A stretch of DNA of 32,000 nucleotides from NCBI RefSeq assembly GCF_000017305.1, contig NC_009664.2, positions 2,520,001 through 2,552,000 on the forward strand, given 5' to 3'. Source of the DNA: Kineococcus radiotolerans SRS30216 = ATCC BAA-149 (lineage in GTDB: Bacteria; Actinomycetota; Actinomycetes; Actinomycetales; Kineococcaceae). Below, one piece after another: positions 13,694 through 22,877 of this stretch. Within the stretch, counting starts at the first letter, position 1, and every line of letters begins with the position of its first letter. Position numbers and translations under genes: made by a program. The notes under the pieces are model-generated. The model saw only the letters and a program-made list of their open reading frames with translations. It was not told where the DNA came from and did not search any database.

Positions 13694-13805
13694 CCGCCCG
13701 GGCGTGCACAGGGGCCCCGGCGGCGGGGTCTGTGGACGGCCGGACCCGCGCCCGGCGCCCGCGCGGCACAGTGGGCGCCCGGGGGCCGGTAGACTTCTGT
13801 GGTTC

Positions 13806-13904
13806 CCCGTCCGCTCGCAGCACGTGAGCCGGGCGGGACGACACGCACCGAGACCCTCCTGCCACGGAGAGACCGTGGCCGCCTGAGACCGAAGGAGGTG
13901 GGGA
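13806..13904 (+). promoter_or_regulatory. Structured rpsF 5' leader (candidate S6:S18 autoregulatory element) with an anti-SD segment
   Basis: Hairpin 1 pairs 13806-13816 with 13826-13837 (11 pairs including one G-U and one bulge). Hairpin 2 pairs 13862-13867 with 13873-13878 (ccacgg/ccgtgg). CCTCCT at 13855-13860 is exactly complementary to the AGGAGG SD at 13893-13898. Confidence 0.4.
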
Positions 13905-14201
13905 ATGAGCGCGCGTCAGTACGAGCTCATGGTGATCCTCGACGCGGAGCTGGAAGAGCGGACGGTCGCCCCGTCCCTCGACCGCTTCCTCAACGTGGTC
14001 CGCCAGGGCGGTGGCGAGGTCGGCAAGGTCGACATCTGGGGCCGCCGCCGGCTCGCGTACGACATCAAGAAGAAGTCCGAAGGCATCTACGCGGTGATCG
14101 AGCTCAACACCGAGCCCGCCGTCGCGCAGGAGCTCGACCGCCAGCTCAACCTCAACGAGGGTGTGCTGCGCACCAAGCTGCTGCGAGCCGAGGCTGCCTG
14201 A
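13905..14201 (+). CDS. rpsF: 30S ribosomal protein S6
   Basis: 98 aa ([13 protein letters not shown]...[24 protein letters not shown]). A strong GAAGGAGG RBS is present. Confidence 0.95.
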
Positions 14202-15742: not shown

Positions 15743-18265
15743 TCAGTCCTCGGCGGGGACGTCCCCGACCGCGACGGTCACCGGGAGGTCGTCGTCGGTG
15801 GGACGGGCGTGCCCGGTGTAGGTGAACACCTGCTCCTTGCCCTCGCCCTCGGTGCCGATCGAGATGATCTGCCCGGCGCGGAAGTCCCCGAAGAGGATCT
15901 TCTCGGACAGGACGTCCTCGATGTCGCGCTGGATGGTGCGCCGCAACGGACGCGCCCCCAGGACCGGGTCGTAGCCCTTCGTCGCCAGCAGGACCTTCGC
16001 CGACGGCGTGAGCTCGATGCCCATGTCGCGGTCCTTCAGCCGGGCCTCGACGTTGGCCAGCATGAGGTCGACGATCTGGACGATCTCCTCCTGCGTCAGC
16101 TGCGGGAAGACGACGGTGTCGTCGACGCGGTTGAGGAACTCGGGCCGGAAGTGCTGCTTGAGCTCCTCGTTGACCTTCGACTTCATCCGGTCGTAGTTCG
16201 TCTGCTTCGTCTGGGAACCGGCCGCGAAGCCGAGACCCGTGGCCTTGGAGATGTCCCGGGTGCCGAGGTTCGTCGTCATGATGATGACGGTGTTCTTGAA
16301 GTCGACCATCCGGCCCTGGGAGTCGGTCAGGCGACCGTCCTCCAGGATCTGCAGCAGCGAGTTGAAGATGTCCGGGTGCGCCTTCTCCACCTCGTCGAAG
16401 AGGACCACGCTGAACGGCTTGCGGCGGACCTTCTCCGTCAACTGACCGCCCTCCTCGTAGCCCACGTAGCCGGGAGGGGAGCCGAACAGGCGCGAGACGG
16501 TGTGCTTCTCGGAGAACTCGCTCATGTCCAGCTGGATGAGGGCGTCCTCCTCACCGAAGAGGAACTCCGCCAGCGCCTTGGCCAGCTCGGTCTTCCCCAC
16601 CCCGGTGGGGCCGGCGAAGATGAACGACCCACCGGGACGCTTGGGGTCCTTCAACCCCGCGCGGGTGCGGCGGATGGCCTGGGAGAGGGCCTTGATGGCG
16701 TCGTTCTGGCCGATGACGCGCTTGTGCAGCTCGGCTTCCATGTTGAGGAGGCGGGTGGACTCCTCCTCAGTCAGCCGGACCACGGGGATGCCGGTGGAGA
16801 CGGCGAGGACCTCCGCGATCAGCTCCTCGTCCACCTCCGCCACGATGTCGAGACCCCCCGAGCGCCACTCCTTCTCCCGGGTGGCGCGCTGGGCGGTGAC
16901 GGTCTTCTCCTTGTCGCGCAGGGAGGCGGCCTTCTCGAAGTCCTGCGCGTCGATCGCGGACTCCTTCTCCCGGCGCACGTCGGCGATGCGCTCGTCGAAC
17001 TCGCGCAGGTCCGGCGGTGCGGTCATGCGGCGGATCCGCAACCGGGCCCCGGCCTCGTCGATCAGGTCGATCGCCTTGTCCGGCAGGTAGCGGTCGTTGA
17101 TGTAGCGGTCGGCCATGGTCGCGGCGGCGACGAGCGCCCCGTCGGTGATGGTCACCCGGTGGTGGGCCTCGTAGCGGTCCCGCAGGCCCTTGAGGATCTC
17201 GATGGCGTGGGGGAGGCTCGGCTCGGGCACCTGGATCGGCTGGAAGCGGCGCTCCAGTGCCGGGTCCTTCTCGATGTACTTCTTGAACTCGTCCAGCGTG
17301 GTGGCGCCCACCGTCTGCAGCTCACCACGGGCCAGCATCGGCTTGAGGATGCTGGCCGCGTCGATCGCGCCCTCGGCGGCACCGGCCCCGACGAGGGTGT
17401 GGATCTCGTCGATGAACAGGACGATGTCCCCGCGGGTGCGGATCTCCTTCAGGACCTTCTTGAGGCGCTCCTCGAAGTCGCCGCGGTAGCGCGAACCCGC
17501 GACCAGGGCCCCGAGGTCCAGGGTGTAGATCTGCTTGTCGCGCAGGGTCTCGGGGACCTGCCCCCGGACGATCTCCTGGGCCAGGCCCTCCACCACGGCC
17601 GTCTTCCCGACCCCGGCCTCGCCGATGAGCATCGGGTTGTTCTTGGTGCGCCGCGACAGCACCTGCATGACCCGCTCGATCTGCTGCTCGCGCCCGATGA
17701 CCGGGTCCAGCTTGCCCTCGCGGGCCGCCTGGGTCAGGTTGCGGCCGAACTGGTCGAGCACGAGGGACCCCGCGGGCGTCCCCTCGCGCTGGGACTCGCC
17801 ACCCGCCGCGGTGGTCGGTTCCTTCCCCTCGTGACCCGAGAGGAGGGTGATGACCTGCTGGCGGACGCGGTTGAGGTCCGCGCCCAGCTTGACCAGGACC
17901 TGCGCGGCGACGCCCTCGCCCTCGCGGATCAGCCCGAGCAGGATGTGCTCGGTGCCGATGTAGTTGTGCCCCAGCTGCAGCGCTTCGCGCAGGGACAGCT
18001 CCAGGACCTTCTTGGCCCGGGGGGTGAAGGGGATGTGACCGGACGGGGCCTGCTGGCCCTGCCCGATGATCTCCTGGACCTGCTCGCGGACGGCGTCCAG
18101 GGAGATGCCCAGCGACTCGAGGGCCTTGGCGGCGACGCCTTCGCCCTCGTGGATCAGGCCGAGCAGGATGTGCTCGGTCCCGATGTAGTTGTGGTTGAGC
18201 ATCCGGGCCTCTTCTTGGGCCAGGACGACGACCCGTCGGGCGCGGTCGGTGAACCTCTCGAACAT
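15743..18265 (-). CDS. clpC: ATP-dependent Clp protease ATP-binding subunit ClpC (ClpC1-type)
   Basis: 840 aa from ATG 18265, with an RBS (GAGGAGACG). The protein shows the duplicated Clp-N repeat ([13 protein letters not shown]...[14 protein letters not shown], present twice). It has two AAA+ modules with Walker A sequences GEAGVGKT and GPTGVGKT, and a UVR-like linker. The extra 55 N-terminal codons in the track ORF were rejected. Confidence 0.95.
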
Positions 18266-18481: not shown

Positions 18482-19795
18482 TCACGCCCCGGTGACCATC
18501 CACGCCCCGCCGCGCTCGCGCCGCACCAGCGTCACCAGCCGGGCCAGGGTGTAGACGCCCGCGAAGGCCACCCACAGCCACACCAGCCCGGCCCGCCCGG
18601 GCGGCACCAGCCACAGCACCGCCAGCGCCGCCGGGACGTAGCAGGCGAGGGTGACCACGCCCGCGCGGGCCAGGTAGCGCCCGTCGCCCGCCCCGATGAG
18701 CACCCCGTCCAGGACGAACACCCACCCCGCCGCCGGGAGGCAGACCCCCAGCACGACCAGCGCGGCCACGAGGTGGCGGCGGACCTCCGGCTCGGGGGCG
18801 AAGAACCCCGCCACGACCGGGCTCGTCACGACCAGCACGACCCCCAGCAGCACGCCCACCCCCACCCCCCACTGCGTCATCCGCCGGATCGTGGACCGGA
18901 CCCCCGCGACGTCGGCGGCCCCCAGCGCCCGGCCCACCAGCGCCTGGGCCGCGATCGCGAGGGCGTCCAGGGCCAGGGCCGTCGTCGTCCACACCGCGTT
19001 CGCCACCTGGTGCGCGGCGATCCCCGCGTCGCCCTGGGCGGCGGCCACGAACGTCGTCAGCAGCGCCGCGGCGCGCAGCGTGACCGTGCGCACGAGCAGC
19101 GGGAGCCCGTCCAGGGCGTTGCGCAGGACCCCCAGCGGGTGCGGCCGCACCCGCGCCCCGGTCGCGCGGACGCCGCGGGCCACGACGACGGCCAGGGCGA
19201 GGGCCATCAGCACCTGGGTCGTCGCCGTCCCGACCGCCGACCCGGCCACGCCCCACCCCGCCCCGTGGACGAGCAGCAGGTTCAGGACCACGTTGAGGGC
19301 CGCGCCCGCACCGGCCACGACCAGCGGGGTCCGGGTGTCCTGCAGCCCGCGCAGGACACCCGTGGCGGCCAGGACGACGAGCATCCCGGGCAGGCCGAGG
19401 AGGCTCCAGTGCAGGTAGGCGAGGGCGTGGGGGCGCGCGGCGGCGGAGACCCCCAGGACGTCCACGAGCGGGCCCGACAGCGACCGGGTGAGGACGGCGG
19501 TGACGACCCCGAGGCCCAGGGCGAGCCACATCCCGTCCACGCCCCGGCTCAGCGCGCCCCGCACGTCGCCGGCGCCGAGGTGGCGGGCGACGCTCGCGGT
19601 GGTGCCGTAGGCGAGGAAGACGAAGACGCTCACCGCGGTGGTCAGCACCGCCCCGGCGATGCCCAGGCCGGCCAGCGGGAGGGTGCCCAGGCGGCCGACG
19701 ATCGCGGAGTCGGCGAGCAGGAAGAGGGGCTCCGCCACGAGGGCGCCCAGCGCGGGGACGGCCAACCGCAGGATCTCGGCGTCACGAGGCGTCAC
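18482..19795 (-). CDS. MATE family efflux transporter
   Basis: A 12-TM-type sequence (EILRLAVPALGALVAEPLFLLADSAIVGRLG...). GTG 19795 is preceded by a near-perfect RBS (AAGGAGG). The 32 upstream codons in the track ORF were rejected. Confidence 0.85.
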   Translation of the reverse strand: MTPRDAEILRLAVPALGALVAEPLFLLADSAIVGRLGTLPLAGLGIAGAVLTTAVSVFVFLAYGTTASVARHLGAGDVRGALSRGVDGMWLALGLGVVTAVLTRSLSGPLVDVLGVSAAARPHALAYLHWSLLGLPGMLVVLAATGVLRGLQDTRTPLVVAGAGAALNVVLNLLLVHGAGWGVAGSAVGTATTQVLMALALAVVVARGVRATGARVRPHPLGVLRNALDGLPLLVRTVTLRAAALLTTFVAAAQGDAGIAAHQVANAVWTTTALALDALAIAAQALVGRALGAADVAGVRSTIRRMTQWGVGVGVLLGVVLVVTSPVVAGFFAPEPEVRRHLVAALVVLGVCLPAAGWVFVLDGVLIGAGDGRYLARAGVVTLACYVPAALAVLWLVPPGRAGLVWLWVAFAGVYTLARLVTLVRRERGGAWMVTGA

Positions 19796-19867
19796 CTTGA
19801 GCCTCCTTGACAGAGCGTTACCGAACTGCAACAAGCCGGACTTCCCCTCACCCGAACGGATGTTTTC

Positions 19868-20018
19868 GTCTCCACACGCCGTGGACAGCATCGTCGCAGG
19901 TCAGAGAGCCGGATCCGACGTTGTCCACTGCTCTGCACCTAGTTGTCCACAACCTTGTCCACCCCCTGTGCACAACCGTCCCCACCTCATCCACAGGCTG
20001 TCCACCAGCCTGTGCACA
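19868..20018 (+). promoter_or_regulatory. Array of DnaA-box-like 9-mers (actinobacterial consensus TTGTCCACA) upstream of dnaB
   Basis: Read directly, in the same orientation: ttgtccact 19921, ctctgcacc 19931, ttgtccaca 19943 (perfect), ttgtccacc 19955, ctgtgcaca 19966, ccgtcccca 19976, tcatccaca 19987, ctgtccacc 19998 and ctgtgcaca 20010. There is also a convergent pair, gtctccaca 19868 and cgtggacag 19880. Spacing is 10-12 bp. Confidence 0.55.
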
Positions 20019-20076
20019 GGGCGGTTTGACCTGCCGCCACGACGTCGGTCAGTGTGCTCGGAGCGTGTCGCAGTTC

Positions 20077-20099
20077 GTGTCGGAGCCGTGCCGTAGGAC
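20077..20099 (+). promoter_or_regulatory. Candidate dnaB promoter resembling the RecA-independent (PafBC-type) DNA-damage promoter motif
   Basis: Reads gTGTCGgag-N8-TAGGAC, compared with the recalled consensus tTGTCRgtg-N8-TAnnnT. The last hexamer base is C, followed by T. The 12-mer gtgtcggagccg is identical to the one upstream of dinB at 30568. Confidence 0.3.
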
Positions 20100-20165
20100 T
20101 GCGGTCAGCGGTCGTCGGGAGGACGCGCGCGGGGATGGGGGCGACGACGTGGTGGTGGCAGCGCA

Positions 20166-22877
20166 GTGACGGCGTACGACGAACCCCCCGCTGACTTCGA
20201 CGCCCCCGACGACGGGCCCTCCCGGGGCCGGCGCGGCGGCCGCAAGGACCGCGGCGCGGACGGCGGCGGTGCCTCCTTCGACCGCATGCCCCCCCAGGAC
20301 ATCGCCGCCGAGCAGGGCGTCCTCGGCGGGATGATGCTGTCCAAGGACGCCATCGCCGACGTCGTCGAGGTCCTCAAGGGCAACGACTTCTACCGCCCCG
20401 CCCACGAGCTCGTCTACGAGGCGATCCTCGACCTCTACTCCCGCGGCGAACCCGCCGACCCGGTCACCGTCTCCGCGGAGCTCACCAACAAGGGCGAGCT
20501 CACCCGCATCGGCGGCACCCCCTACCTGCACGACCTCATCTCCACCGTCCCCACCGCGGCCAACGCCGCCTTCTACGCCCGCATCGTCCGCGAGCGCGCC
20601 GTCCTGCGCCGCCTCGTCGAAGCCGGCACCCGCATCGTGCAGATGGGCTACGGCGCCGACGGCATGGACGTCGACGCCATCGTCAACTCCGCCCAGGCCG
20701 AGGTCTACGCCGTCACCGAGACCCGCACCAAGGAGGACTACGCCGTCCTCGGCGACGTCATCGAGGGCACCATCGACGAGATCGAGGCCAGCTCCCACCG
20801 CGGGGAGGGCATGGTCGGGGTCCCCACCGGCTTCGCCGACCTCGACAGCCTCACCAACGGCCTGCACCCCGGGCAGATGATCGTCATCGCGGCGAGGCCG
20901 GCTGTGGGGAAAAGCACCCTGGGACTAGACATCGCGCGCGCCGCGTCCATCAAGCACGGTCTCGCGTCGGTGATCTTCTCCCTGGAGATGGGGCGCAACG
21001 AGATCGCGATGCGCCTGCTCTCCGCCGAAGCGCGCGTGCCCCTGCAGAAGATGCGCAAGGGCAACATGGACGACGCGGACTGGACGCGCTTCGCGCGCAC
21101 CATGGGCGCCATCAACGAGGCGCCGCTCTACATCGACGACTCCCCGAACATGTCGCTGATGGAGATCCGCTCCAAGTGCCGGCGGCTGAAGCAGCGCGCC
21201 GACCTGAAGCTCGTCATCGTCGATTACCTCCAGCTCATGACGTCGGGCAAGCGCGTCGAGAGCCGCCAGCAGGAGGTCTCGGAGTTCTCCCGCGCCCTGA
21301 AGCTGCTGGCGAAGGAGATCGAGGTCCCGGTCATCGCGCTCTCGCAGCTGAACCGCGGTCCCGAGCAGCGCACGGACAAGCGGCCCATGGTCAGCGACCT
21401 GCGCGAATCGGGCTGCCTCACCGCCGGGACCCGCGTGCTGCGGGCCGACACCGGTGCGGAGACCACGATGGGGGAGCTGTTCGCCCTCCAGGCCCGTGAC
21501 GTGCCCGTCTGGTCGCTGGACGAGTCGCTGCGCTACGTCCGTCGCCACCTGACCCGCGTGTTCCCGACCGGGGTGAAGCCGGTGTTCCGGCTGCGGACGG
21601 CCTCGGGCAAGACGGTCCGGGCGACCGCGAACCACCCCTTCTTGACCTACGACGGGTGGAAGCCGCTGGGCGAGCTCTCCGTGGCCGACCGCCTCGCCGT
21701 CCCCCGCCACGTCCCGGCCCCGGAGCGCGTGGCGAGCTGGACCGACGACCAGGTGCTGCTGCTGGGCCACCTCATCGGCGACGGGTCGTTCGTGAAGCGC
21801 CAGCCCCTGCGCTACGCCAGCGTGGACGAGGCGAACCTGTCCGCCGTCACCGAGGCCGCCGCCAACGCGTTCTCCATCGTCGCCGTCCGCGACGAGTACG
21901 CCGCCGCGCGGTGCACCACCCTGCGCCTGCCCGCGCCCTACCGCCTGACCCACGGGCGCCGGAACCCGCTGGCCGCGTGGCTCGACGAGCTGGGGCTGTT
22001 CGGTCTGCGCAGCTACGAGAAGTTCGTGCCCCAGGAGGTCTTCCACCTCCCCAAGCGCCAGATCGCGTTGTTCCTGCGCCACCTGTGGGCGACGGACGGC
22101 AGCGTCACCCTGACCCGGCAGAGCCGCGGCGGCCGGATCTACTACGCCTCCACCAGCCTCCAGCTGATCCAGGACGTCTCCCGGTTGCTCCTGCGCTTCG
22201 GCATCTCGACCCGGGTCCGCACCACCACTCCGAAGGGCGACCACCGCCCCGGCTACACGCTGGACGTCTCGGGAGTAGACGACCAGCGCCGCTTCCTCCA
22301 GGAGATCGGTGTGCACGGCGCCCGCGGGGCCACGGCCGACCGGTTGCTGGAGGTCATCCGCGACGTGTCGGCGAACACCAACGTCGACACCGTGCCGCGC
22401 CAGGTGTGGGACGACGTCCGCCGCCTGCTCGTCGAGAAGGAGATGACGCACCGCGAGTTCGCCGCCGCGATGGGCACGTCCTTCGGAGGGAGCTCGCTGT
22501 GGAAGCACGCGCCGTCGCGGGAACGGCTGGGGCGCGTGGCCCAGGTCCTCGACAGCGCCGAGCTGGACGTGCTGGCGGTGAACGACGTCCTGTGGGACGA
22601 GGTCGTCGCCATCGAGCCCGACGGCGAGGAGCAGGTCTACGACGCGACCGTGCTCGGCGGCCACAACTTCGTCGCCGACGGCATCGCCGTCCACAACTCC
22701 ATCGAACAGGACGCCGACATGGTGATCCTGCTCCACCGCGAGGACATGTACGAGAAGGAGTCCCCGCGGGCGGGGGAGGCGGACTTCATCGTCGCGAAGC
22801 ACCGCAACGGCCCCACGGACACCATCACCGTCGCGTTCCAGGGGCACTACTCGCGCTTCGTCGACATGGCGACCTGA
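20166..22877 (+). CDS. dnaB: Replicative DNA helicase DnaB, interrupted by one intein (903-aa precursor, 475-aa spliced helicase)
   Basis: Helicase motifs are present: PPQDIAAEQGVLGGMM, Walker A AARPAVGKST, Walker B LVIVDYLQLM, LSQLNRGPEQR and IVAKHRNGPTDT. The start is GTG 20166. Confidence 0.95.
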   Translation: MTAYDEPPADFDAPDDGPSRGRRGGRKDRGADGGGASFDRMPPQDIAAEQGVLGGMMLSKDAIADVVEVLKGNDFYRPAHELVYEAILDLYSRGEPADPVTVSAELTNKGELTRIGGTPYLHDLISTVPTAANAAFYARIVRERAVLRRLVEAGTRIVQMGYGADGMDVDAIVNSAQAEVYAVTETRTKEDYAVLGDVIEGTIDEIEASSHRGEGMVGVPTGFADLDSLTNGLHPGQMIVIAARPAVGKSTLGLDIARAASIKHGLASVIFSLEMGRNEIAMRLLSAEARVPLQKMRKGNMDDADWTRFARTMGAINEAPLYIDDSPNMSLMEIRSKCRRLKQRADLKLVIVDYLQLMTSGKRVESRQQEVSEFSRALKLLAKEIEVPVIALSQLNRGPEQRTDKRPMVSDLRESGCLTAGTRVLRADTGAETTMGELFALQARDVPVWSLDESLRYVRRHLTRVFPTGVKPVFRLRTASGKTVRATANHPFLTYDGWKPLGELSVADRLAVPRHVPAPERVASWTDDQVLLLGHLIGDGSFVKRQPLRYASVDEANLSAVTEAAANAFSIVAVRDEYAAARCTTLRLPAPYRLTHGRRNPLAAWLDELGLFGLRSYEKFVPQEVFHLPKRQIALFLRHLWATDGSVTLTRQSRGGRIYYASTSLQLIQDVSRLLLRFGISTRVRTTTPKGDHRPGYTLDVSGVDDQRRFLQEIGVHGARGATADRLLEVIRDVSANTNVDTVPRQVWDDVRRLLVEKEMTHREFAAAMGTSFGGSSLWKHAPSRERLGRVAQVLDSAELDVLAVNDVLWDEVVAIEPDGEEQVYDATVLGGHNFVADGIAVHNSIEQDADMVILLHREDMYEKESPRAGEADFIVAKHRNGPTDTITVAFQGHYSRFVDMAT
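21414..22697 (+). mobile_element. DnaB intein (428 aa) carrying a LAGLIDADG homing-endonuclease domain
   Basis: The N-terminal junction is DLRESG|CLTAGTRV (Cys1 codon 21414-21416). Block B is TANHPF. The two LAGLIDADG motifs are LLGHLIGDGSF and FLRHLWATDGSV. The C-terminal junction is FVADGIAVHN|SIEQD (Asn codon 22695-22697, Ser+1 at 22698). Confidence 0.9.

Follow-up and report, generated by a model that had tools for sequence, protein, structure and literature searches.

Upstream of the replicative helicase gene dnaB of Kineococcus radiotolerans SRS30216, a run of closely spaced DnaA-box-like 9-mers was analyzed within a 32,000-nucleotide stretch of the chromosome (NC_009664.2, positions 2,520,001 to 2,552,000), which is called the window here and whose first letter is position 1. 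Seven of these boxes (B1 to B7) follow each other in the same orientation and end directly before a candidate dnaB promoter. The run is very probably a functional DnaA-binding array, orthologous to the site upstream of dnaB in mycobacteria; by sequence comparison, it is the Kineococcus version of a DnaA-binding region located upstream of dnaB across Actinomycetota. Taken as a whole, the array probably supports DnaA oligomerisation upstream of the dnaB promoter, where it would activate helicase expression and also titrate DnaA.

Composition and spacing of the array

Boxes were scored by their mismatches to the actinobacterial DnaA box TTGTCCACA, and the main threshold was set at ≤2 mismatches. 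This sequence is the published high-affinity box of both M. tuberculosis and S. coelicolor (PMC4285127). The following sites are located in the gap between dnaB and its divergent neighbor, a gene of the MATE family; degrees of conservation refer to the alignment of Kineococcus genomes described below.

19868-19876, + strand: GTCTCCACA, left half of a convergent pair; 2 mismatches, 85% column identity
19880-19888, - strand: CTGTCCACG, right half of the convergent pair; 2 mismatches
19921-19929, + strand: TTGTCCACT, a good DnaA box; 1 mismatch, found in this lineage only
19931-19939, + strand: ctctgcacc; 4 mismatches, no conservation, probably not a site
19943-19951, + strand: box B1, TTGTCCACA; 0 mismatches here, TTGTCCCCA in five other species
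19955-19963, + strand: box B2, TTGTCCACC; 1 mismatch, 96% conserved
19966-19974, + strand: box B3, CTGTGCACA; 2 mismatches, 98% conserved
19976-19984, + strand: box B4, ccgtcccca, weak; 3 mismatches, CCCC core invariant and 11-bp register kept
19987-19995, + strand: box B5, TCATCCACA; 2 mismatches, TCCACA invariant
19998-20006, + strand: box B6, CTGTCCACC; 2 mismatches
20010-20018, + strand: box B7, CTGTGCACA, promoter-proximal end of the array; 2 mismatches, invariant in all Kineococcus genomes

In a preliminary description of this DNA, nine consecutive 9-mers had been proposed as an array with all sites on the same face of the helix. Each of the nine was found on the + strand at the coordinate given for it, and the perfect match at 19943, the convergent pair at 19868/19880 and a TTGACC hexamer at 20026-20031 were likewise present. 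As an array of nine boxes, the proposal has to be narrowed: seven boxes are conserved, the 9-mers at 19931 (four mismatches) and 19976 (three) are weak, and those at 19921 and 19931 are not conserved. Since the sites at 19931 and 19976 match poorly, the run splits at the two-mismatch threshold into 3 + 3 sites on an 11-bp lattice. B3 holds the palindrome TGTGCACA and can also be read on the minus strand as TTGTGCACA (19967-19975) with one mismatch.

The number of boxes clearly exceeds chance expectation. At ≤2 mismatches, 59 matches were counted in the window as compared to 33 ± 6 in dinucleotide shuffles, and the whole surplus is located within the gap. Seven same-strand matches at this threshold fall within 100 bp (19921-20018), all of them on a lattice of approximately 11 bp; the maximum per 100 bp was three in 200 first-order Markov simulations of 32 kb and four in 3000 runs with the composition of the gap. 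A box density no higher than in shuffled or same-composition sequence had been named beforehand as an outcome speaking against the array, and the density found is far above both controls. Independently, Tandem Repeats Finder reported periods of 12 and 23. The gap itself (370 bp, 19796-20165) has a G+C content of 64.3% as compared to 75.5% for the window and is thus less GC-rich than its surroundings, as described before.

The spacings from B1 to B7 are 12, 11, 10, 11, 11, and 12 bp with a mean of 11.17 bp. On a helix of 10.5 bp per turn, this mean corresponds to a rotation by about 23 degrees from box to box, which adds up to about 137 degrees across the array; the boxes are therefore not strictly placed on one face, and the claim of a common helix face holds only approximately.

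A dense and oriented array of DnaA boxes beside a helicase gene might also indicate a second replication origin, the relic of one, or a site of helicase loading. This is extremely improbable. The gap holds no unwinding element (the lowest 25-mer has 48% GC, and the longest A/T run is four bases) and no DnaA-trios, as judged by the lack of TA[GA] or [CT]TA repeats. Neither dnaA nor dnaN is present among the gene calls of assembly GCA_014191015.1 (L081), which is 98.9% identical to the window from 5226 to 25670, that match this interval. The same arrangement is found in taxa whose oriC is known to be located elsewhere (PMC4285127). The earlier statement that this is not the canonical dnaA-dnaN oriC agrees with the lack of an unwinding element and DnaA-trios in the gap and of dnaA and dnaN across 5226-25670.

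Conservation in Kineococcus and other Actinomycetota

Seven Kineococcus genomes were compared, namely the window, L081, and five more with MATE proteins 69-86% identical; L089 was left out of the alignment, since it carries a MATE paralog in a different context. The core from 19943 to 20031, which comprises the seven boxes and TTGACC, does not contain a single insertion or deletion (indel) across the seven genomes. Column identity is 93% in the boxes, 75% in the spacers, and 44-58% with many indels in three flanking stretches. Zero indels while the bases of the spacers vary indicate that the spacing of the boxes is under selection. B3 and B7 are essentially invariant. B1 reads TTGTCCCCA in all other species, and the perfect box of the window thus represents a local improvement. 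The site at 19921 shows a column identity of 54%, with indels, and is not kept in the five other Kineococcus species; neither is the site at 19931.

The convergent pair (CCACA-N3-GTGGA) is kept in Kineococcus. In two species, an extra minus-strand TTGTCCACC is inserted at this pair, supporting its identification as DnaA boxes. The pair is part of a module, TTTTC-nCnCCACA-N3-GGTGGA, which was also seen in Streptomyces, Arthrobacter, and Actinomadura. It is overlapped by CCACACGCCG at 19872-19881, one base away from the M. tuberculosis WhiA motif CGACACGCCG; a WhiA site at this position was rejected, since its ACGCC part is not kept in the other Kineococcus species.

Genome contigs were then scanned with the N-terminal domain of DnaB, which yielded at least 80 loci (L001-L080) with a best match of 78% identity and no Kineococcus among the matches listed. 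These listed loci, to which all counts below refer, include Streptomyces, Kitasatospora, Arthrobacter and relatives, Actinomadura, Streptosporangiaceae, and Curtobacterium. Near-perfect boxes are most densely clustered directly 5' of dnaB in almost every one of these loci, each of which spans approximately 9 kb. Boxes with ≤1 mismatch occur upstream of dnaB at 5.58 per kb as compared to 0.107 per kb elsewhere, a 52-fold difference; 201 boxes point toward dnaB and 85 away from it. In contrast to the rest of the loci, the distances from one same-strand site to the next have peaks at 11-12, 21, and 32-33 bp. Lack of conservation in relatives had also been named beforehand as speaking against the array; both the sites and their spacing are kept in Kineococcus, and clusters of at least three boxes upstream of dnaB were found in 70 of the 80 other actinobacterial loci.

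A phased module of three boxes, consisting of TTGTCCACA, a TGTCCCC-type box, and CTGTGCACA, recurs in Arthrobacter, Streptomyces, Sphaerisporangium, Actinomadura, and Kineococcus. GTGCACA occupies the third, phased position of this module in Arthrobacter, Streptomyces, Actinomadura, and Streptosporangiaceae. Being in register with canonical boxes, GTGCACA behaves as a variant of the box. The E. coli consensus TT(A/T)TNCACA allows any base at position 5, and GTGCACA fits this relaxed consensus.

A further conserved element was identified beside the boxes.

19889-19907, no strand assigned: conserved motif CATCGTCGCAGGTCAGAGA, placed after the convergent pair and before the main array; column identity 93% in Kineococcus

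The motif occurs in the forms CATCGTCGCAGGTCAGAG or (T)TTTCGCAGGTCAG and is not similar to a DnaA box. Its core sequence GCAG[GT]T[CA]A is found upstream of dnaB at the equivalent place in 49 of the 80 loci, approximately 440-500 bp upstream of the conserved part of dnaB, and the full motif hardly differs between Kineococcus, Arthrobacter (L026), and a metagenome-assembled genome (L069). The reverse complement of the motif, TGACCTGC, repeats the TGACCTGC at 20027-20034. GCAGGTCAG was also considered as a leftward -35 element and rejected, since no plausible -10 element was found by eye at 16-18 bp in Kineococcus or Streptomyces.

Some or all of these elements might be operators of another factor, the likeness to DnaA boxes being partly a coincidence. 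Candidates are the two invariant TGTGCACA palindromes, which are 44 bp apart, the palindrome CCACA-N3-GTGGA, and GCAGGTCAG. B3 and B7 are indeed the most invariant boxes and contain perfect 8-bp palindromes, GCAGGTCAG is kept across orders yet unlike a DnaA box, WhiA and WhiB2 act at the dnaB promoter of M. tuberculosis, and CCACACGCCG differs from the WhiA motif by the one base mentioned above. However, in many taxa GTGCACA always follows canonical boxes in register, at a distance of one box-length. B1, B2, B5, and B6 belong to the canonical TCCAC type, the ACGCC of the WhiA-like sequence is not kept in other Kineococcus species, and purified DnaA alone binds the mycobacterial counterpart of the array. 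We therefore consider operators of a different regulator quite improbable.

The mycobacterial counterpart and the dnaB promoter

The corresponding loci of the M. tuberculosis complex (L091) and M. marinum (L092) were compared with the array. Gene order in L091 is ssb-rpsR-rplI-'Rv0057'-dnaB-darT-darG. Both loci contain TTGTCCACA approximately 296 bp upstream of dnaB and pointing toward it, a tandem pair TGATCCACA-gg-TT(C/T)TCCACA, 11 bp apart, approximately 220-230 bp upstream and also toward dnaB, as well as two ATGCACA elements and TGTCGG-N10-TACGCT, all in the same direction.

Binding of DnaA to this region has been published. Hicks et al. (2020; PMC7738170) mapped DnaA genome-wide by DNA affinity purification sequencing in vitro (IDAP-seq) with M. 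tuberculosis and found five strongly enriched regions, one of them designated 'Rv0057 (upstream of dnaB)'. The same five regions were obtained in M. smegmatis by chromatin immunoprecipitation sequencing (ChIP-seq) of myc-DnaA (PMC7738170). The first rows of the IDAP-seq table give windows 195-220 nt upstream of Rv0058 with 35-88-fold enrichment for the wild-type protein (PMC7738170). In M. smegmatis, the dnaB-rplI peak was the strongest of the genome with 225-fold enrichment, and oriC reached 44-fold (PMC7738170). The DnaA variant I282T at 150 nmol/L enriched the dnaB-upstream site 12-14-fold as compared to 35-45-fold for the wild type, and in the I282T strain the level of dnaB mRNA was reduced (log2 -0.70, adjusted P-value 1e-46; PMC7738170).

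The coordinates of the mycobacterial boxes fit the published peak windows within fragment resolution; hence, the Kineococcus array is their counterpart in both position and sequence. Absence of DnaA binding had been named beforehand as a third outcome against the array; binding was found in vitro and in vivo for the mycobacterial counterpart, and by analogy it can be expected for Kineococcus. The proposal of a DnaA-binding, oligomer-supporting array other than oriC is thus supported by box density, conservation, and the mycobacterial counterpart.

The annotated open reading frame (ORF) Rv0057 (L091 1586-2113) spans the DnaA-box cluster and the dnaB promoter motifs. In M. marinum, no gene was called in the equivalent 530-bp gap (L092 2470-3000), so Rv0057 may be regulatory DNA rather than protein-coding. 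An M. tuberculosis WhiA motif, GACACGCC, is located 10 bp upstream of the perfect DnaA box (L091 ~1778-1785).

Downstream of B7, two promoter-like elements were identified.

20026-20055, + strand: candidate upstream dnaB promoter, consisting of a -35 element TTGACC (20026-20031), an 18-bp spacer, and a -10 element CAGTGT (20050-20055)
20078-20099, + strand: TGTCGG-N10-TAGGAC, second candidate dnaB promoter or operator; found in six of the seven Kineococcus genomes

TTGACC starts 7 bp after B7 and is kept in six of the seven genomes, and CAnTGT is present in four of the six distinct sequences compared. In Streptomyces, TTGGCT-17-TACCGT directly follows the last box at the same place as TTGACC-18-CAGTGT in Kineococcus. 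The second element, with the general form TGTCGG-N10-TAnnnn, is located approximately 45 bp further downstream. It was also found in Streptomyces, Kitasatospora, Arthrobacter, Planotetraspora, Sinomonas, M. tuberculosis, and M. marinum, approximately 65-90 bp upstream of the dnaB start (~2016-2037 in L091 and ~2920-2941 in L092). It is probably either the core dnaB promoter, in which case an unusual upstream element lies at about -28 to -23, or an operator. The Kineococcus motif overlaps GTGTC (20077-20081), the complement of the WhiA core GACAC.

If transcription starts at about 20062, the centers of the boxes lie at about -48, -60, -71, and further upstream, and the array does not extend over the region from -35 to +1. 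This position 5' of the -35 element, together with the result obtained for M. tuberculosis I282T, favors a DnaA-dependent activation of dnaB; we incline, by a modest preference, to dnaB transcription being activated as the main output of the array. The following sequence of events is proposed. Domain IV of DnaA would bind the better boxes B1, B2, and B3/B7, which fit TTGTNCACA. ATP-DnaA would then fill the phased weaker sites cooperatively in head-to-tail order, in the manner of the low-affinity arrays in oriC of E. coli. The filament would end at about -48, counted from the start predicted for the upstream dnaB promoter, and would stimulate transcription. By stimulating this promoter, the filament would let the supply of helicase track the level of active initiator. 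At the same time, DnaA would be sequestered at the locus, as any locus with many boxes necessarily sequesters DnaA as well; titration would be a side effect that cannot be avoided and may have been selected. We infer binding by the DnaA of Kineococcus, cooperative filling, the positions of the promoters, and the direction of regulation.

Alternatively, the array might mainly be a DnaA sink like datA of E. coli, the D78 cluster of S. coelicolor or the clusters of B. subtilis; once the locus has been replicated, it would reduce free or active DnaA and thereby restrain re-initiation, with any effect on dnaB being secondary. This is possible, and we hold it as a tentative alternative; titration is also compatible with activation of dnaB as a second function, and the two may coexist. 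Seven to eleven boxes are assembled in 150 bp, the M. smegmatis counterpart out-competes oriC in ChIP (225-fold versus 44-fold; PMC7738170), and for E. coli, S. coelicolor, and B. subtilis, clusters outside oriC are described as negative regulators (PMC3479198). Furthermore, Streptomyces dnaB is located inside a conserved 'origin island' of approximately 51 kb and is therefore copied early (PMC8743542). However, a pure sink would not need the strict link to the dnaB promoter, the bias in orientation, and the fixed distance to the -35 element across taxa.

The opposite direction of control is conceivable too: DnaA on the array might repress dnaB by negative feedback, or the divergent MATE gene, by extension over the promoters or by looping to the convergent pair upstream. 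DnaA is a repressor at several known promoters, and its autoregulation is among the examples cited in PMC7738170. Such repression would act as at the dnaA promoter of E. coli; the convergent pair at 19868/19880 and the main array could bracket a leftward promoter, and -35-like TGACC hexamers in inverted orientation stand on either side of the array. Against this, weaker binding goes along with lower rather than higher dnaB expression in the M. tuberculosis mutant, the array ends ahead of the -35 element and leaves the core promoter uncovered, and no convincing leftward -10 element was found by eye. Repression is thus unlikely.

Several points weigh against an array that activates dnaB. Sequence analysis cannot separate regulation from titration, and both binding and an effect on dnaB expression are shown in mycobacteria only. 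The I282T correlation is based on one mutant, which shows many further changes in expression (PMC7738170). The dnaB promoter of M. tuberculosis is also activated by WhiA and WhiB2 (PMC13473873); hence, DnaA is unlikely to be the sole input and may be a minor one. The TGTGCACA palindromes, which are the most invariant elements, could in principle serve another dimeric factor. A consensus scan for sigma-70 promoters and terminators found nothing in 19600-20400, so the promoter assignments rest on conservation only, and both dnaB promoters are to be taken as predicted. Finally, the 80 listed loci are mostly from related Streptomyces, and their counts do not represent independent events; the pattern recurs nonetheless in several orders.

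A more far-reaching interpretation, which we consider rather unlikely and offer as speculation, is an ancient phylum-wide sensor of DnaA-ATP. A filament would grow in one direction from strong to weak boxes toward the promoter and would switch the helicase on only at high levels of active DnaA. The array would also act as the principal DnaA sink of the chromosome and exceed oriC in strength, and GCAGGTCAG and TGTCGG-N10-TAnnnT would be undescribed partner sites. If true, one element would couple initiation potential, helicase supply, and initiator buffering.

Neighboring genes and comparison with known systems

The array is located directly 5' of dnaB and 3' of the rpsF-ssb-rpsR-rplI cluster, and its end lies 148 bp before the GTG start codon of dnaB. 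It is flanked by two genes.

18482-19795, - strand: MATE-family efflux gene, 437 aa, identified from the translation; divergent from dnaB
20166-22877, + strand: dnaB, replicative helicase, 903 aa, GTG start, identified from the translation

The gene call of identical length in L081 gave a Pfam match to MatE, and homologs are named Kineococcus MATE transporters. MATE adjoins dnaB in divergent orientation in all six Kineococcus loci fetched (L081, L085-L088, L090). The L081 gene call for dnaB matched the Pfam families DnaB, DnaB_C, Intein_splicing, and LAGLIDADG_3, and the GTG start is kept in the Kineococcus alignment.

DnaB of the window carries a LAGLIDADG intein of 428 aa after DLRESG (residues 417-844, window 21414-22697). 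Intein content differs within the genus: DnaB of K. aurantiacus has 635 aa and lacks intein domains, and the dnaB gene call of K. xinjiangensis comprises 1236 aa with LAGLIDADG matches at two separate places, which suggests two inteins. The interval between rplI and MATE holds a Clp/AAA+ chaperone-like gene (Clp_N, AAA, UVR, AAA_2) at ~15743-18265 on the minus strand in this species only; in other Kineococcus it is empty or contains either a GGDEF gene or a CN-hydrolase gene together with an unknown gene.

Weaker copies of the DnaA-box motif had been reported upstream of rpsF. The motifs at 13703 and 13731 match at the two-mismatch level; one relative retains them in part, and another lacks them. 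Not being conserved, they are regarded as chance matches, and this part of the preliminary description is dropped. The rpsF leader (13788-13905) is strongly conserved in Kineococcus. It contains TAGACT, which resembles a -10 element (13790-13795), and, directly before the ribosome-binding site, the perfect hairpin CCACGG-AGAGA-CCGTGG (13862-13878); it may be an autoregulatory leader of the S6:S18 type; no Rfam family matched it. Rfam gave no match in the whole window at the gathering threshold and none in 19700-20300 at E ≤5; hence, a structured RNA of a known family is not indicated. A tRNA scan found no tRNA genes.

A strong DnaA site upstream of dnaB is thus not peculiar to mycobacteria but conserved in Actinomycetota, with a recognizable grammar of boxes pointing toward dnaB, phasing of approximately 11 bp, and a promoter directly after the last box. 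The phenomenon is less novel than the preliminary description assumed, as it is documented in mycobacteria. The searchable literature, one relevant Streptomyces paper aside, contained no account of the phylum-wide conservation, the grammar of orientation and phasing, or the seven-box array of Kineococcus. The unusual regularity of the latter, with seven contiguous boxes and no indels between species, makes it a convenient natural substrate on which the oligomerisation of DnaA can be followed on double-stranded DNA while no origin is unwound. The coupling of the initiator level both to helicase supply and to titration of the initiator could be studied with it as well, with a bearing on replication control and, in M. 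tuberculosis, on drug tolerance tied to dnaA variants.

Among known systems, the mycobacterial site is the most similar. Both are located between the rpsF-ssb-rpsR-rplI cluster and dnaB and share TTGTCCACA pointing toward dnaB, a tandem pair with 11-bp spacing, and a downstream TGTCGG-N10-TAnnnT. The mycobacterial site has approximately three clear boxes over about 85 bp and two ATGCACA elements, whereas Kineococcus has seven contiguous boxes on an 11-bp lattice, the convergent pair, and a lineage-specific extra box. The divergent MATE gene of Kineococcus stands where mycobacteria have the annotated Rv0057 ORF. DnaA binding and the link to dnaB mRNA are experimental results in mycobacteria, and the Kineococcus array is known from its sequence.

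The low-affinity arrays of E. coli oriC scaffold DnaA oligomers (Rozgaja et al. 2011, as summarized in PMC4285127). According to this summary, they too consist of same-orientation 9-mers approximately 11 bp apart from center to center, with strong and weak sites; these arrays are nucleated by the stronger boxes and are considered to guide a progressive oligomerisation of ATP-DnaA. The Kineococcus array differs by the lack of an unwinding element, a DnaA-trio, and an origin function, abuts a promoter instead of a DNA unwinding element, and is a single array, not two opposed ones.

The clusters datA and D78 and those of B. subtilis, which restrain initiation, share with the array that they are DnaA-box clusters outside oriC able to hold many DnaA molecules (cited in PMC3479198). 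The searchable literature, with the exception named above, contained no text placing the Streptomyces DnaA-box clusters D78, H24, and H69 relative to dnaB; one of them may be the cluster upstream of dnaB in Streptomyces. Cosmid H24 probably covers dnaA to dnaB. The datA locus works with IHF and promotes hydrolysis of DnaA-ATP.

In Caulobacter crescentus, DnaA likewise controls dnaB, its helicase partner (Hottes et al. 2005, as cited in PMC7738170); this organism belongs to another phylum and uses another box consensus, TGATCCACA (PMC4285127). With DnaA binding upstream of dnaB published for both mycobacteria and Caulobacter, the Kineococcus array is a new example and not a new kind of such a site.

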